In this document: piece by piece, positions 6,886 to 14,141 of the stretch | How positions within the stretch are numbered: position 1 is the first letter of the stretch | Layout: each line of letters opens with the position of its first letter | IMG/VR virus record: IMGVR_UViG_2547132278_000016 | Origin: a virus | Lineage: Duplodnaviria > Heunggongvirae > Uroviricota > Caudoviricetes | Length of the DNA: 18,636 bases | Strand: one strand, 5' to 3' | The notes under the pieces: model-generated | The model's input: the letters and a program-made list of their open reading frames with translations, nothing else | Databases searched by the model: none | Told to the model about the DNA's origin: nothing | Made by a program: the position numbers and the translations under genes

Positions 6886-7018
6886 TTTTTGGGACTCCTG
6901 GCTGATTAAGTATGTCGATAAGGCGTTTCCATCCGTCACGTAATTTACGGGTGATTCGTTCAAGTAAAGATTCGGAAGGGCAGCCAGCAACAGGCCACCC
7001 TGCAATGGCATATTGCAT
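6854..7018 (-). CDS. cIII: CIII (FtsH inhibitor stabilising CII)
   Basis: Hand translation of the - strand from ATG at 7018: [54 protein letters not shown] (54 aa); below the ORF-track cutoff. Confidence 0.85.
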   Translation of the reverse strand: MQYAIAGWPVAGCPSESLLERITRKLRDGWKRLIDILNQPGVPKNGSNTYGYPD

Positions 7019-7090
7019 GGTGTGCTCCTTATTTATACATAACGAAAAACGCCTCGAGTGAAGCGTTATTGGTATGCGGTAACGCCGCGC

Positions 7091-9927: not shown

Positions 9928-10206
9928 ATGCAACTTACAAGTACTCGCAAGAAAGCGAATGCAATCACAAGCAACATCCTGAATCGAATTGCTGTACGTG
10001 GTCAGCGAAAGGTTGCTGATGCATTAGGGATTAATGAATCGCAAATTTCGCGATGGAAAGACAGCTTTATCCCAAAGATGGCCATGCTTCTGGCTGTGCT
10101 GGAGTGGGGTGTTGAAGACGAGGAATTAGCAAAGCTAGCAAAGAAAGTAGCCATGGTGCTGACAAAAGAAAAGCCTCAAGACTGCTGCAACAGTTTTGAG
10201 GCCTGA
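9928..10206 (+). CDS. c1: CII-like transcriptional activator (P22 C1 type)
   Basis: Start at ATG 9928 with AAGGA upstream (MQLTSTRKKANAITSNILNRIAVRGQRKVADALGINESQISRWK…); HTH and the LLAVLEWGV motif shared with lambda CII; the track ORF from 9841 is an upstream extension. Confidence 0.8.
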   Translation: MQLTSTRKKANAITSNILNRIAVRGQRKVADALGINESQISRWKDSFIPKMAMLLAVLEWGVEDEELAKLAKKVAMVLTKEKPQDCCNSFEA

Positions 10207-10240
10207 TGTAGAAAGACTGGATCAATCCACAGGAGTCATT

Positions 10241-11140
10241 ATGACAAATACAGCAAAAATACTCAACTTCGGCAGAGGTAACTTTGCCGGACAGGAGCGT
10301 AATGTGGCAGATCTCGATGATGGTTACGCCAGACTATCAAATATGCTGCTTGAGGCTTATTCAGGCGCAGATCTGACCAAGCGACAGTTTAAAGTGCTGC
10401 TTGCCATTCTGCGTAAAACCTATGGGTGGAATAAACCAATGGACAGAATCACCGATTCTCAACTTAGCGAGATTACAAAGTTACCTGTCAAACGGTGCAA
10501 TGAAGCCAAGTTAGAACTCGTCAGAATGAATATTATCAAGCAGCAAGGCGGCATGTTTGGACCAAATAAAAACATCTCAGAATGGTGTATCCCTCAAAAC
10601 GAGGGAAAATCCCCTAAAACGAGGGATAAAACATCCCTCAAATTGGGGGATTGCTATCCCTCAAAACAGGGGGACACAAAAGACACTATTACAAAAGAAA
10701 AAAGAAAAGATTATTCGTCCGAGAATTCTGGCGAATCCTCTGACCAGCCAGAAAACGATCTTTCTGTGGTTAAACCGGATGCTGCAATTCAGAGCGGCAG
10801 TAAGTGGGGAACAGCAGAAGACCTGACCGCCGCAGAGTGGATGTTTGACATGGTGAAGACCATCGCGCCATCAGCCAGAAAACCGAATTTTGCTGGGTGG
10901 GCTAACGATATCCGCCTGATGCGTGAACGTGACGGACGTAACCACCGCGATATGTGTGTGCTTTTCCGCTGGGCCTGCCAGGACAACTTCTGGTCCGGTA
11001 ACGTGCTGAGTCCGGCCAAACTCCGCGACAAGTGGACCCAGCTCGAAATCAACCGTAACAAGCAACAGGCTGGCGTGACAGCCGGAAAACCAAAACTCGA
11101 CCTGACAAACACTGACTGGATTTACGGGGTGGATCTATGA
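10241..11140 (+). CDS. O: Replication initiator O (lambda type)
   Basis: Translation from ATG 10241 (AGGAGT upstream) MTNTAKILNFGRGNFAGQERNVADLDDGYARLSNMLLEAY… matches lambda O; contains the ori iterons. Confidence 0.95.
   Translation: MTNTAKILNFGRGNFAGQERNVADLDDGYARLSNMLLEAYSGADLTKRQFKVLLAILRKTYGWNKPMDRITDSQLSEITKLPVKRCNEAKLELVRMNIIKQQGGMFGPNKNISEWCIPQNEGKSPKTRDKTSLKLGDCYPSKQGDTKDTITKEKRKDYSSENSGESSDQPENDLSVVKPDAAIQSGSKWGTAEDLTAAEWMFDMVKTIAPSARKPNFAGWANDIRLMRERDGRNHRDMCVLFRWACQDNFWSGNVLSPAKLRDKWTQLEINRNKQQAGVTAGKPKLDLTNTDWIYGVDL
10589..10720. repeat. ori: ori-lambda: four ~19-bp iterons (O-binding sites) followed by an AT-rich unwinding region
   Basis: Direct repeats ATCCCTCAAAACGAGGGAA / AATCCCCTAAAACGAGGGATAA / CATCCCTCAAATTGGGGGA / TATCCCTCAAAACAGGGGGA, then AAAGACACTATTACAAAAGAAAAAAGAAAAGATTATTCG. 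Confidence 0.85.
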
Positions 11141-11838
11141 AAAACATCGCCGCACAGATGGTTAACTTTGACCGTGAGCAGATGCGTCGGATCGCCAACA
11201 ACATGCCGGAACAGTACGACGAAAAGCCACAGGTACAGCAGGTAGCGCAGATCATCAACGGTGTGTTCAGCCAGTTACTGGCAACTTTCCCGGCGAGTCT
11301 GGCTAACCGTGACCAGAACGAACTGAACGAAATCCGCCGCCAGTGGGTTCTGGCTTTCCGGGAAAACGGGATCACCACAATGGAACAGGTTAACGCAGGA
11401 ATGCGCGTAGCCCGTCGGCAGAACCGACCATTCCTGCCATCACCCGGGCAGTTTGTTGCATGGTGCCGGGAAGAAGCATCCGTTATCGCCGGACTGCCAA
11501 ACGTCAGCGAGCTGGTTGATATGGTTTACGAGTATTGCCGGAAGCGAGGCCTGTATCCGGATGCGGAGTCTTATCCGTGGAAATCAAACGCGCACTACTG
11601 GCTGGTTACCAACCTGTATCAGAACATGCGGGCCAATGCGCTTACTGATGCGGAATTACGCCGTAAGGCCGCAGATGAGCTTGTCCATATGACTGCGAGA
11701 ATTAACCGTGGTGAGGCGATCCCTGAACCAGTAAAACAACTTCCTGTCATGGGCGGTAGACCTCTAAATCGTGCACAGGCTCTGGCGAAGATCGCAGAAA
11801 TTAAAGCTAAGTTCGGACTGAAAGGAGCAAGTGTATGA
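11137..11838 (+). CDS. P: Replication protein P (DnaB helicase loader)
   Basis: 233-aa translation MKNIAAQMVNFDREQMRRIANNMPEQYDEKPQVQQVAQIINGVF… matches lambda P; ATGA overlap with the O stop. Confidence 0.95.
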   Translation: MKNIAAQMVNFDREQMRRIANNMPEQYDEKPQVQQVAQIINGVFSQLLATFPASLANRDQNELNEIRRQWVLAFRENGITTMEQVNAGMRVARRQNRPFLPSPGQFVAWCREEASVIAGLPNVSELVDMVYEYCRKRGLYPDAESYPWKSNAHYWLVTNLYQNMRANALTDAELRRKAADELVHMTARINRGEAIPEPVKQLPVMGGRPLNRAQALAKIAEIKAKFGLKGASV

Positions 11839-12008
11839 TGGGCAAAGAGGCAATTATTCATTACCTGGGGACGCACAAGAGCTTCTGTGCGCCGGACGTT
11901 GCTGCGACAACAGGTGTGACATTAACCAGCATAAATCAGGCTGCGGCAAAAATGGCGCGGGCAGGAATCCTGGTCATTGATGGTAAGGTCTGGCGAACGT
12001 TTGTTTAA
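11835..12008 (+). CDS. ren: Ren-like protein, C-terminally truncated (57 aa)
   Basis: Hand translation MMGKEAIIHYLGTHKSFCAPDVAATTGVTLTSINQAAAKMARAGILVIDGKVWRTFV* resembles the N-terminal half of lambda Ren (~96 aa); similarity ends near 12000. Confidence 0.6.
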   Translation: MMGKEAIIHYLGTHKSFCAPDVAATTGVTLTSINQAAAKMARAGILVIDGKVWRTFV

Positions 12009-12154
12009 CGGTTAGCTACTCAGGATGATAGGGCGGGGCAAGTGAGTATGAAGCGGATTTTCAGGAATGCCATCAGAGTTTGGAAATAAAGTGGGTTTTC
12101 TAGTGGCAAGAGACTTGATAATATTTAGTTCTTTGAATCCAAGGAGATAGGGTT

Positions 12155-12650
12155 ATGAGAAAATTTATTTTAGCCTTTGTTATAAGTGCCTCGTTTACAG
12201 CAAATGCTGGTGTAGAGAAGTTAGGGCCGTGGATAACAAAGTCTGAGATAAATAAAATGACTGACCAGACTGACTTTGTGGCCCTTAATTTATCACCAGA
12301 TTCATATAACAAAGCAGGTACTGATCGTGCAACTTCACTGGTGTTGCGTTGTAGTGATAACAAAACAGATGCCTATTTATCATTCAATGATTATATGGGT
12401 TCGGACAACCCAAGAATTACAGTGCGGTTAGATGGGCGGAAAGCCGGTCAAGAGTGTTTGGGGAGGTGGGGAAGGCGGTGATTCTGCATTTGCTCCACAA
12501 CCAATACAATTTATAAAGACCTTGGCTAAGCATAAAAAAGCTATTTTTGGGTTTGAACCTTATGGATCAACTATGCAAGTAGTTGAGTTTGACTTGTCTG
12601 AGATTGATAAGGTTGTGGAAAAAATTTCACAGTCTTGCAATTGGAAATGA
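12155..12650 (+). pseudogene. Secreted/periplasmic hypothetical protein gene split by an apparent frameshift (ORFs 12155-12481 and 12432-12650)
   Basis: AAGGAGA RBS then ATG 12155; signal peptide MRKFILAFVISASFTANA; reading frame ends in a G-rich stretch (GGGGAGGTGGGGAAGGCGG) while an overlapping frame continues to 12650. Confidence 0.5.
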
Positions 12651-12667
12651 CAAAAAAATTTCATATG

Positions 12668-12695
12668 AACCCAGTTTGCGCTGGGTTTTTTATTT
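12668..12695 (+). terminator. Intrinsic terminator
   Basis: Stem AACCCAG/CTGGGTT (loop TTTGCG) followed by TTTTTTATTT, about 20 bp after the stop at 12650. Confidence 0.6.
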
Positions 12696-13279
12696 CAGTA
12701 GCCAATAATGCATTCAAAATCTCTTACTTGAGAAACGGCCTATTTGAGATTTCAGTCGTGGCAGGATGATCAGTTGATTCGAGTATTGACGCATTTGCGT
12801 TCGGAGCGATTACAGTAGATTGTAAATAATAATGAGAAACACATAGCCACCCCGTGGTATTGAAACCATATAATGTTGGATTTGAAAACAGATCTTTTCC
12901 CATGTATTAATAACTACATCCCCGCGAGTGATTCAAAAAGGAGGGCCCAATTTTGTCCGAGTTTTTGTATTCCCCCGCATGCCGCTGCGGAGCACTACAT
13001 CTGAGTGTCTGACTAGGGGATAAAATTAGACTGGATAGTGAGAAGAAAGTGGCGCGCTAGGCTGTGCCGAGTGCTACCAGTACACCTTGGGGGTGTGCAG
13101 CTTTCGCCGAGACTGTAGTGGGTATCGGTTAATGCACGAAAAACCGAGAGGTCAGACAACCAATTTGCCGTAGGATTGTTTCCGGTGCGATACCGGTCTA
13201 CTAACTGAAAGCAATGCGAAAAAGCATAAACTCGGTCCTTCAGTCGCCCTACACACTATTTACTAAGAAGGGCTGAAGC

Positions 13280-13479
13280 ATGGATACAATTATTACATGG
13301 ATGGGAGATCGTCTGTTGGGGGGACACAAAAATCCGATCTGCGGCAGATGGCGATCACTGGATTAACTTCCGCGATTTGTTCAACAATTTTGTACACTGA
13401 AAAATTAAAACATGGTGAGCCTATTAACCCAAACGAAGAAGAAAAACTTTATAGGCTTTGGTATGAAGGAAACGCTTGA
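13280..13479 (+). CDS. Small hypothetical ORF with a G6 tract separating the RBS-linked start frame from the long frame (possible pseudogene or frameshift-prone gene)
   Basis: AGAAGGG then ATG at 13280 (MDTIITWMGDRLLGG…, stops after 28 codons); track ORF 13297-13479 is in another frame; the two frames meet at GGGGGG 13318-13323. Confidence 0.3.
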
Positions 13480-13685
13480 AAGAATAAAGCACAATTAAAA
13501 CCTTTGATTTGCGATAATCAACTTGCCATAATTAAGTAATCGGAGTCTGAACAACTCCGGTGACTTCTGCGCTAAACGGGGACGTTTATGCGCACATACA
13601 ATCCAAACTATCTTCTCCTTTCACAGATGCAGAAATGCACCTGCAATTCTTTGCATCTAGCGTTTGACCTCTGCGGAGGTGAAGC

Positions 13686-14141
13686 GTGAACCTCCCACAA
13701 GACGGCATCAAATTACATCGCGGCAACTTCACCGCTATCGGCCAGCAGATCCAGCCTTATCTGGAGGAAGGCAAATGCTTTCGCATGGTGCTTAAACCGT
13801 GGTGCGAGAGACGCAGTCTTTCCCAGAATGCACTCAGCCACATGTGGTACAGCGAAATCAGTGAATACCTCATCAGCAGGGGTAAAACGTTCGCCACTCC
13901 AGCTTGGGTAAAAGATGCTCTCAAACACACATATCTCGGTTATGAAACCAAAGACCTGGTTGATGTCGTAACCGGTGATATCACCACTATCCAGTCGTTA
14001 CGCCATACCTCCGATCTTGATACCGGAGAGATGTATGTCTTCCTGTGTAAGGTTGAAGCCTGGGCGATGAATATTGGTTGCCACCTGACTATTCCACAGA
14101 GCTGCGAGTTCCAGCTGCTGCGCGACAAGCAGGAGGCGTAA
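13686..14141 (+). CDS. ybcN: YbcN-like protein (151 aa), nin-region gene as in DLP12
   Basis: 151-aa ORF, GTG start with GGAGGTG upstream; sequence and size match remembered E. coli YbcN. Confidence 0.8.

Follow-up and report, generated by a model that had tools for sequence, protein, structure and literature searches.

The 18,636-nt stretch of DNA analysed here (IMG/VR virus record IMGVR_UViG_2547132278_000016, referred to below as the window) is a DLP12/lambda-like prophage of Escherichia coli, and it contains a gap of roughly 580 bp that lacks long open reading frames (ORFs) but holds a predicted structured non-coding RNA of 331 nt. The RNA site belongs to the nin part of this lambdoid phage's rightward early operon, approximately 3 kb downstream of pR. 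An earlier interpretation made from the sequence alone (the sequence-only reading) had offered a structured RNA, a regulatory leader, small peptides or a degraded gene as possible contents of the gap. Its starting observation was borne out by the sequence and the ORF lists: no ORF of 60 or more amino acids overlaps positions 12700-13280 on either strand, the longest being a 59-amino-acid frame on the minus strand (12724-12903).

On its left the gap is bounded by an intrinsic terminator on the plus strand at 12667-12695, whose 9-bp stem (12667-12688) and following T run agree with the terminator described in the sequence-only reading, and which belongs to the preceding VasI/'TagO'-like gene and is not part of the RNA. 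Further along the plus strand lie the relic of an Ant-like antirepressor gene (12732-12818), a promoter-like region (12819-12917), the predicted RNA itself, here called the core (12918-13248, from AUCCCCGCGAG to CAGUCGCC), a 31-nt linker that is terminator-less in this window and places AAGAAGGG (13265-13272) ahead of the ATG at 13280 (linker, 13249-13279), and a broken cassette gene of the phrog_12412 family (13280-13498). To the right of the gap follow ybcN/ninB (13686-14141) and then ninE, rusA and Q.

The possibility that the gap holds gene remnants was correct for both of its ends and incorrect for the core. The relic consists of the last 28 codons and the stop codon of an Ant-like (Bro-N) gene, and 19 of these 28 codons specify the residue found in the intact 202-amino-acid protein of phage IdasGreatGrand (tblastn E 2e-8), which itself matches PHROG anti-repressor families; the DNA identity of this segment to IdasGreatGrand is only 82.8%. 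The small ORF noted at 13280 is the beginning of a broken gene for a 118-amino-acid protein. A frame-disrupted fragment of a known gene, which the sequence-only reading had named, in combination with a missing transcript, as the finding that would overturn its proposal, was not recovered from the core. Variable columns in the core are distributed over the three codon positions without periodicity (66/49/59), each of the six frames contains 2-5 stops, and the ORF fragments of the core matched no Pfam or PHROG family. The G+C content of the core is 0.51.

A check of conservation across related phages, also suggested in the sequence-only reading, showed the core to be the best conserved stretch of its neighbourhood, so chance does not account for the lack of an ORF. 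The core of the window shares 99.1% identity with IdasGreatGrand, compared with 82.8-96.8% for the flanks. In the Klebsiella phages Kp4856-1 and Kp4862-1 the only alignable portion is 12918-13253, at 78-79% identity, and both flanks are unrelated. Across all recovered loci, conservation starts at the A of AUCCCCGCGAG, which is the predicted +1 position, and stops at CAGUCGCC.

Of 5426 complete E. coli genomes, 158 carry the RNA, in single copy, and in 154 of these 158 it is at least 99% identical; among the 60 E. coli records listed, none carries an annotation at the RNA site. Pattern scans identified approximately 65 IMG/VR contigs and 28 metagenome contigs with the RNA, and protein-guided look-ups added genome contigs of Enterobacter and Obesumbacterium. 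Two isolated phages, IdasGreatGrand and Turner, carry it. A covariance model (R1), which scores the window RNA at 376.8 bits over positions 1-331, detected the RNA in 18 of 80 ybcN-bearing phage contigs as near-identical copies only, and found no divergent copies among these 80 loci at E values up to 1. Since it occurs in only 18 of the 80, the RNA is accessory. No match was found among the PLSDB plasmids. One pattern match in the GTDB representative genomes, in a Bacteroidetes metagenome-assembled genome, had no match to the covariance model and was dismissed as chance, as were four further IMG/VR matches in high-GC contigs.

Covariation and fold of the RNA

The alignment comprised 26 distinct variants of the RNA, 71-100% identical, from compared loci that are labelled by L-numbers (L010, L076, L086 and so on). 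From these, RNAalifold predicted 84 pairs, 19 of them with compensatory change. A refined model contains 99 pairs in 17 helices; 96.8% of its cells are paired, versus 32-42% in slid controls in which the partners were moved by 1-3 columns, and 26 pairs are compensatory, with both sides changed, versus 3-8 in the same controls. None of 500 shuffles reached the observed structure score. In the 99-pair model, G-U cells number 285 and A-C cells 6, which fixes the strand of the RNA as plus; the complementary strand would pair much worse (85.9%). Judged by this covariation, the core is a conserved structured RNA of the plus strand, and the structured-RNA option of the sequence-only reading holds for the 331 nt at 12918-13248. 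The hairpin CCGGTGCGATACCGG that had been picked out there does exist, at 13182-13196 and not at the quoted 13183-13197, one base away; it caps a helix in which the closing pair covaries (AU 14, CG 6, UA 6). Several alternative pairings (GAYUGG/CCAAUU, GAAAGC/GCUUUC, UAGUG/CACUA, CCGAGUUU/AAACUCGG and UUUUUGUAUU/AAUGCGAAAAA) were rejected as uncompensated.

Comparison of the variants shows two domains clamped together by two predicted long-range contacts. The 5' domain (12918-13021, helices 1-4) is closed by pairing of AUCCCC (12918-12923) with GGGGAU (13016-13021) and has two hairpin arms; helix 1 is retained in L076 and L086 through U-G and U-A changes. The 3' domain (13029-13245, helices 7-17) is closed by GACUGG (13029-13034) and UCAGUC (13240-13245) and is multi-branched, with arms C, D and E. 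The strongest covariation is found in the helices 13045-13050/13099-13104 and 13106-13114/13121-13129. One of the two contacts is a 6-bp kissing helix between CACUAC in the loop of arm B of the 5' domain (12993-12998) and GUAGUG, the entire 6-nt loop of arm D of the 3' domain (13115-13120). It occurs in four fully complementary versions (CACUAC/GUAGUG, CACCAC/GUGGUG, CGCAAC/GUUGCG and CAUCAC/GUGAUG), and three of its six pairs covary (79/204 AU 15, GC 10; 81/202 AU 10, UA 9, CG 7). Covariation of this kind could reflect a contact either within one molecule or between molecules. The other contact is a 7-bp pseudoknot between UCUGACU at the junction of the 5' domain (13008-13014) and GGUCAGA in the 3' domain (13150-13156). 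It is invariant except in L086, where a C-to-U change is matched by G-to-A. A competing local hairpin, GGU/ACC, is broken in both L076 and L086; L086 retains the long-range pairing, and L076 loses one pair of it. The junctions carry many invariant nucleotides, and the longest conserved unpaired stretch is approximately 13 nt, which makes the RNA look unlike an antisense regulator. From its predicted fold the RNA looks globular. The copy at L076 4025-4355 is mismatched at two positions of the kissing loop and at one of the pseudoknot, its Shine-Dalgarno (SD) sequence is degraded, and it may be decaying.

The 5' domain also contains the SD-like sequence AAGGAGGG (12938-12945), which the sequence-only reading had correctly located together with the TTG that follows it; this codon, at 12953, starts a 19-codon plus-strand frame that ends at the TGA at 13010-13012 (frame with stop, 12953-13012). 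Along its length the frame takes in arm B with the kissing loop as well as the 3' strands of helices 2 and 3, and it stops within a pseudoknot strand. Because of this overlap, translation of the frame and formation of the tertiary fold would be mutually exclusive. The small-peptide option is consistent with the frame itself, which is open in 23 of 26 variants (a stop cuts it in L100, and a 1-nt deletion shifts it in L076 and L086), but not with the substitutions inside it, which track RNA pairing and not codon logic. No synonymous-only changes were seen, and the C-terminal changes (G/R/E, L/P/Q, H/P) fall in covarying RNA pairs. From this pattern the 19-amino-acid peptide itself does not look to be under selection. 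The near-perfect SD sequence and the retention of the frame in 23 of 26 variants are nonetheless a puzzling feature of the RNA.

Putative promoter, terminator and cargo genes of the cassette

A putative sigma-70 promoter on the plus strand (12882-12910) directly precedes the core. It consists of a -35 hexamer TTGAAA (12882-12887), a 17-nt spacer and a -10 hexamer TATTAA (12905-12910), with a predicted start at approximately 12917/12918. The same two hexamers at the same spacing are retained in the otherwise diverged upstream regions of other lineages, which suggests that the RNA has a weak sigma-70 promoter of its own. A further motif, ACCATATGTTGTAYAGTTGAA, is kept about 25 nt upstream of the -35 hexamer in L051, L037, L057, L035, L023, L239, L242, L086 and L076, whose flanks have otherwise diverged; the equivalent position in the window is approximately 12862-12881. 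In these lineages, which are not of the E. coli type, the motif may bind a regulator or serve as an UP element. In most lineages a strong intrinsic terminator, with 5-7 GC pairs and a run of 6-8 U, is located 10-25 nt after CAGUCGCC.

Downstream of the RNA, at least five unrelated ORFan families were found, encoding a 118-amino-acid four-helix protein, a 178-amino-acid membrane protein (group B), and proteins of 183, 95 and 177 amino acids. In L010 there is no cargo gene, and an ordinary DUF1367 nin gene stands next to the RNA. The cargo proteins had no Pfam or PADLOC match, including to ToxN/AbiQ-type endoribonucleases. The gene family of the window's own lineage encodes, when intact, the 118-amino-acid protein (phrog_12412, PHROG E 8e-70), which is predicted as a four-helix bundle (AlphaFold2 mean predicted local distance score, pLDDT, 80) without a significant fold match in the PDB. 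A HEPN identity for this protein was considered and rejected, as the matches were weak and the Rx4-6H motif did not support it. Among E. coli-type loci, the 118-amino-acid gene is the only gene specific to those bearing the RNA (18 of 18 versus 0 of 62). A partner protein encoded elsewhere in the phage was also sought by clustering the ORFs of 19 diverse RNA-bearing loci, and only ordinary lambdoid genes were recovered.

In the window, the cassette gene is recognised as three tblastn pieces in two reading frames, and it has a 1-nt deletion relative to a 66-amino-acid allele and a 138-nt deletion relative to the 118-amino-acid allele. Three alleles are present in IMG/VR: the 118-amino-acid form (approximately 25 contigs), the 66-amino-acid form with the 138-nt deletion (approximately 18) and the window form with the further 1-nt deletion (approximately 6). 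The RNA is intact beside the dead cassette genes, of which the IMG/VR set has 24 (truncated or frameshifted) versus 25 full-length alleles.

In L097 and L086 the RNA and its cargo form a unit of approximately 1.24 kb bracketed by direct repeats of 108-190 nt that are 92-96% identical (L097 5037-5179 and 6277-6419; L086 8279-8435 and 9514-9669). The repeats are copies of a ylcH-like sequence that normally precedes ninB/ybcN, and they appear to mark the boundaries at which cassettes are exchanged. In the window this bracketing is absent, and no direct repeats of at least 20 nt were found in 11700-13800. From its position in these loci, the RNA is best described as heading a mobile accessory cassette of the lambdoid nin region.

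Function of the RNA and relation to known systems

A covariance-model scan against Rfam, which the sequence-only reading had proposed, was carried out with Rfam 15 (4227 models, including ROOL, GOLLD, HEARO, OLE, raiA, riboswitches, RNase P, tmRNA, 6S and group I/II introns), and the core matched no family. Over the whole window at the gathering threshold the only match was Lambda_thermo; on 12600-13700 at E values up to 10 there were two chance matches, each of them on the upstream terminator; and five divergent homologues of the RNA gave none at E values up to 1. ARAGORN found no tRNA or tmRNA gene in the window. A search of the full-text literature, including exact sequence strings, turned up no account of the RNA, one 2026 preprint on mining of non-coding RNAs having been left unread. 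We therefore regard this as a real class of large structured RNA, unannotated and apparently undescribed, that is carried by lambdoid phages of Enterobacterales.

By kind, although not by descent, its nearest analogues appear to be ROOL and GOLLD. Both are large "ornate" bacterial RNAs that are often borne by prophages and that were seen by cryo-electron microscopy to form RNA-only homo-oligomers (PMC12286853). The RNA in the window resembles them in being hundreds of nucleotides long, multi-domain, phage-borne and non-coding, in its many invariant junction nucleotides and covariation-backed helices, and in the loop-loop and pseudoknot contacts that join its distant parts. It differs in matching neither Rfam model even at E values up to 10, in its Enterobacterales hosts (ROOL and GOLLD occur mainly in Firmicutes and environmental bacteria), and in lying upstream of a cargo gene within the nin region and not beside tRNA genes. 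At 331 nt it is also smaller than ROOL (approximately 580 nt) or GOLLD (approximately 800 nt). The nut boxA/boxB sites and the put sites of HK022 share with it a place in the rightward early operon, and the hairpin AUGC-GAAAAA-GCAU (13214-13227) is superficially boxB-like. Those sites, however, are 15-70 nt long and lie right after pL and pR, whereas this RNA has 331 nt, a putative promoter of its own and a position about 3 kb past pR; the loop of the hairpin has 6 nt rather than 5 and is variable in L086, and there is no boxA.

On balance we lean towards the view that the RNA is an autonomous folded product and part of a new class of large phage-borne RNAs. This is preferred because the terminators that follow it are strong and come without a covarying antiterminator, because the cargo is interchangeable or absent, because the RNA stays intact where the cargo is dead, and because the fold is far more elaborate than that of known leaders. 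The RNA would be transcribed from its own weak promoter and could therefore be made in a lysogen under repression of pR. The transcript would end in most lineages at the strong terminator approximately 10-25 nt after CAGUCGCC, giving a discrete RNA, and transcripts that escape termination would also carry the promoterless cargo gene; in the terminator-less lineage of the window, transcription would run on into the dead cassette gene. The folded RNA might then work as a compact particle, of RNA or of ribonucleoprotein, by binding a factor of the host or the phage or, like ROOL and GOLLD, by self-assembly. More tentatively, the class could possess an activity of its own, either as a sensor that gates interchangeable cargo, by its fold or by translation of the 19-codon frame, or as a self-assembling or catalytic particle.

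Several observations weigh against an autonomous product. The folding energy of the single sequence is no better than that of shuffled sequences (z = 0.03 and 0.13 for the two strands). The family is narrow, being confined to Enterobacterales phages at 71% identity or more, so that its identity could largely reflect recent common descent. The putative promoter is weak (-10 TATTAA) and was not listed by a consensus scan, because the -10 hexamer lacks its final T. No terminator follows the RNA in the 118-amino-acid lineage to which the window belongs. The cargo gene starts at a fixed distance from the RNA, +32 to +34 or +53/54, which leaves no room for a promoter of its own and is the layout of a cis-acting leader. 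Finally, close homologues (at least 54% identity) of the 118-amino-acid and 178-amino-acid group B proteins are always preceded by the RNA.

The last three of these points also favour the principal alternative, in which the RNA is a leader or sensor, a folded 5' untranslated region that sets expression of the promoterless cargo in response to a ligand, a protein or the state of translation, through terminator read-through or access to the ribosome binding site. We consider this possible, though clearly less so than an independent product. It is the arrangement one would expect from the constant order of promoter, RNA, optional terminator and gene, and from the sharing of one repeat-flanked cassette by RNA and gene; the 118-amino-acid gene follows without an intervening terminator in two diverged IMG/VR RNA lineages as well as in the Enterobacter and Obesumbacterium contigs. 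The many invariant junction nucleotides could make a binding pocket, second-messenger riboswitches typically precede varied genes, and a ribosome translating from the conserved SD through the 19-codon frame would unfold the 5' domain together with the kissing loop and the pseudoknot. Riboswitches and attenuators likewise have a structured RNA immediately 5' to a same-strand gene that lacks a promoter, conserved junction nucleotides and, as in most lineages here, a terminator between RNA and gene. Other details speak against a leader. No known aptamer class was matched, and 331 nt is 2-5 times the typical aptamer size and far above those known. The sole antiterminator candidate, GUCGCC/GGCGGU, is weak and does not covary, and it is further weakened without compensation where the RNA ends in GAC, while the terminators it would have to overcome are strong. 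A 5-bp GCCCU/AGGGC pairing could mask the SD, and it is found in the E. coli type only. The downstream genes are unrelated ORFans that share no nameable function, with an ordinary nin gene in their place in L010, and the RNA persists where the gene it would control is dead. Distant homologues (43-51% identity) of both the 118-amino-acid and the 178-amino-acid proteins exist in other contexts without the RNA. A 43%-identical group B homologue, at L252 1073-1500, is located by a P4-type integrase, and the 430-nt AT-rich gap upstream of it gave no match to the RNA model.

The remaining alternatives are much less probable. That the RNA is an antitoxin or regulator neutralising the downstream protein, as in type III toxin-antitoxin (ToxIN-like) or AbiF-like abortive infection systems, would fit the order of promoter, non-coding RNA, terminator and promoterless protein gene, the accessory slot in a prophage, the membrane protein encoded by the group B cargo and the ORFan nature of all cargo genes. 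We think it improbable, since the RNA has no repeat array, tandem or direct, and persists beside broken protein genes, and since no cargo had a PADLOC or Pfam match to ToxN, AbiF or other toxins; moreover, one RNA paired with at least five unrelated, interchangeable proteins is a poor fit to a specific RNA-protein antidote. Hardly better placed, and marginally less so, is a small-protein gene, in which the peptide MSEFLYSPACRC... made from the strong SD and TTG is the product and the RNA structure is secondary. AAGGAGG does stand 8 nt before the TTG, an open frame with an unchanged stop codon is seen in 23 of 26 variants, and 24 of 26 share its initial 10 residues (MSEFLYSPAC). The opening 30 nt of the frame, however, show no change at any of the three codon positions in 24 of 26 variants, even at 71% overall identity, which points to constraint on the RNA. 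The C-terminal residues change non-conservatively and in step with their base-pair partners. Besides the interruptions in L100, L076 and L086, L076 and L086 have a degraded SD, and L018 and L095 an altered one. Helix 3 partly sequesters both the SD and the start codon, and a peptide would explain no more than 60 of the 331 conserved nucleotides. Least probable of all, to the point of being nearly discounted, is a decayed protein gene, a neutral spacer or a site acting as DNA (a recombination boundary or an origin) without any RNA function. The left 90 bp of the gap and its right-hand ORF are truly gene relics, the region is a hot spot of recombination and has boundary repeats, and the single-sequence fold is not unusually stable, yet such an explanation is already contradicted by the covariation, with its 26 compensatory pairs, long-range ones included, and by the strand-specific excess of G-U over A-C cells (285 versus 6). 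The core is also better conserved than the genes that flank it, it shows neither protein-family matches nor codon periodicity, and its conservation spans genera whose flanks differ entirely.

Few bacterial RNAs longer than 300 nt with complex tertiary structure have been found, and most of them (OLE, ROOL, GOLLD and raiA) are so far without a function. To our knowledge none of these four is native to E. coli or its lambdoid phages, which offer the easiest setting for genetics, phage biology and structural work. The present RNA has been overlooked despite its presence in approximately 3% of complete E. coli genomes, and it is suited to experiment, having clean boundaries, natural compensatory variants of the kissing loop, a defined cassette and isolated phages that carry it. 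If the RNA acts in trans, it would add an accessory function at the level of RNA to temperate phages; if it acts in cis, it would be a shared regulatory front end for swappable cargo, and the hypervariable nin slot would have to be read differently. As a sensor it would give accessory or defence cassettes a riboswitch-like "expression platform" of a new kind, and as a particle it would be a ROOL/GOLLD-like RNA in the most tractable of host-phage systems.

Remaining features of the window

The gene to the left of the gap (12155-12650) encodes a VasI/'TagO'-like lipoprotein (Pfam PF11319, E 5e-6; phrog_1848; annotation of identical relatives). In the window it is frameshifted by one extra G near 12434, and in strain 120899 it is intact (164 amino acids); the frameshift is either that of a pseudogene or a sequencing error. 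RefSeq annotates a ren pseudogene, with a frameshift and an internal stop, in the relatives 120899 and AR_0369, and its equivalent in the window is approximately 11835-12104. The P gene (11137-11838) and the O gene (10196-11140) precede it. The left part of the window contains the integrase, the cIII thermoregulator and cI/cro/cII. The lambda cIII thermoregulator (Rfam Lambda_thermo) was matched over its full length on the minus strand at 6973-7031 with 88.5 bits, which confirms a lambdoid early-left region.

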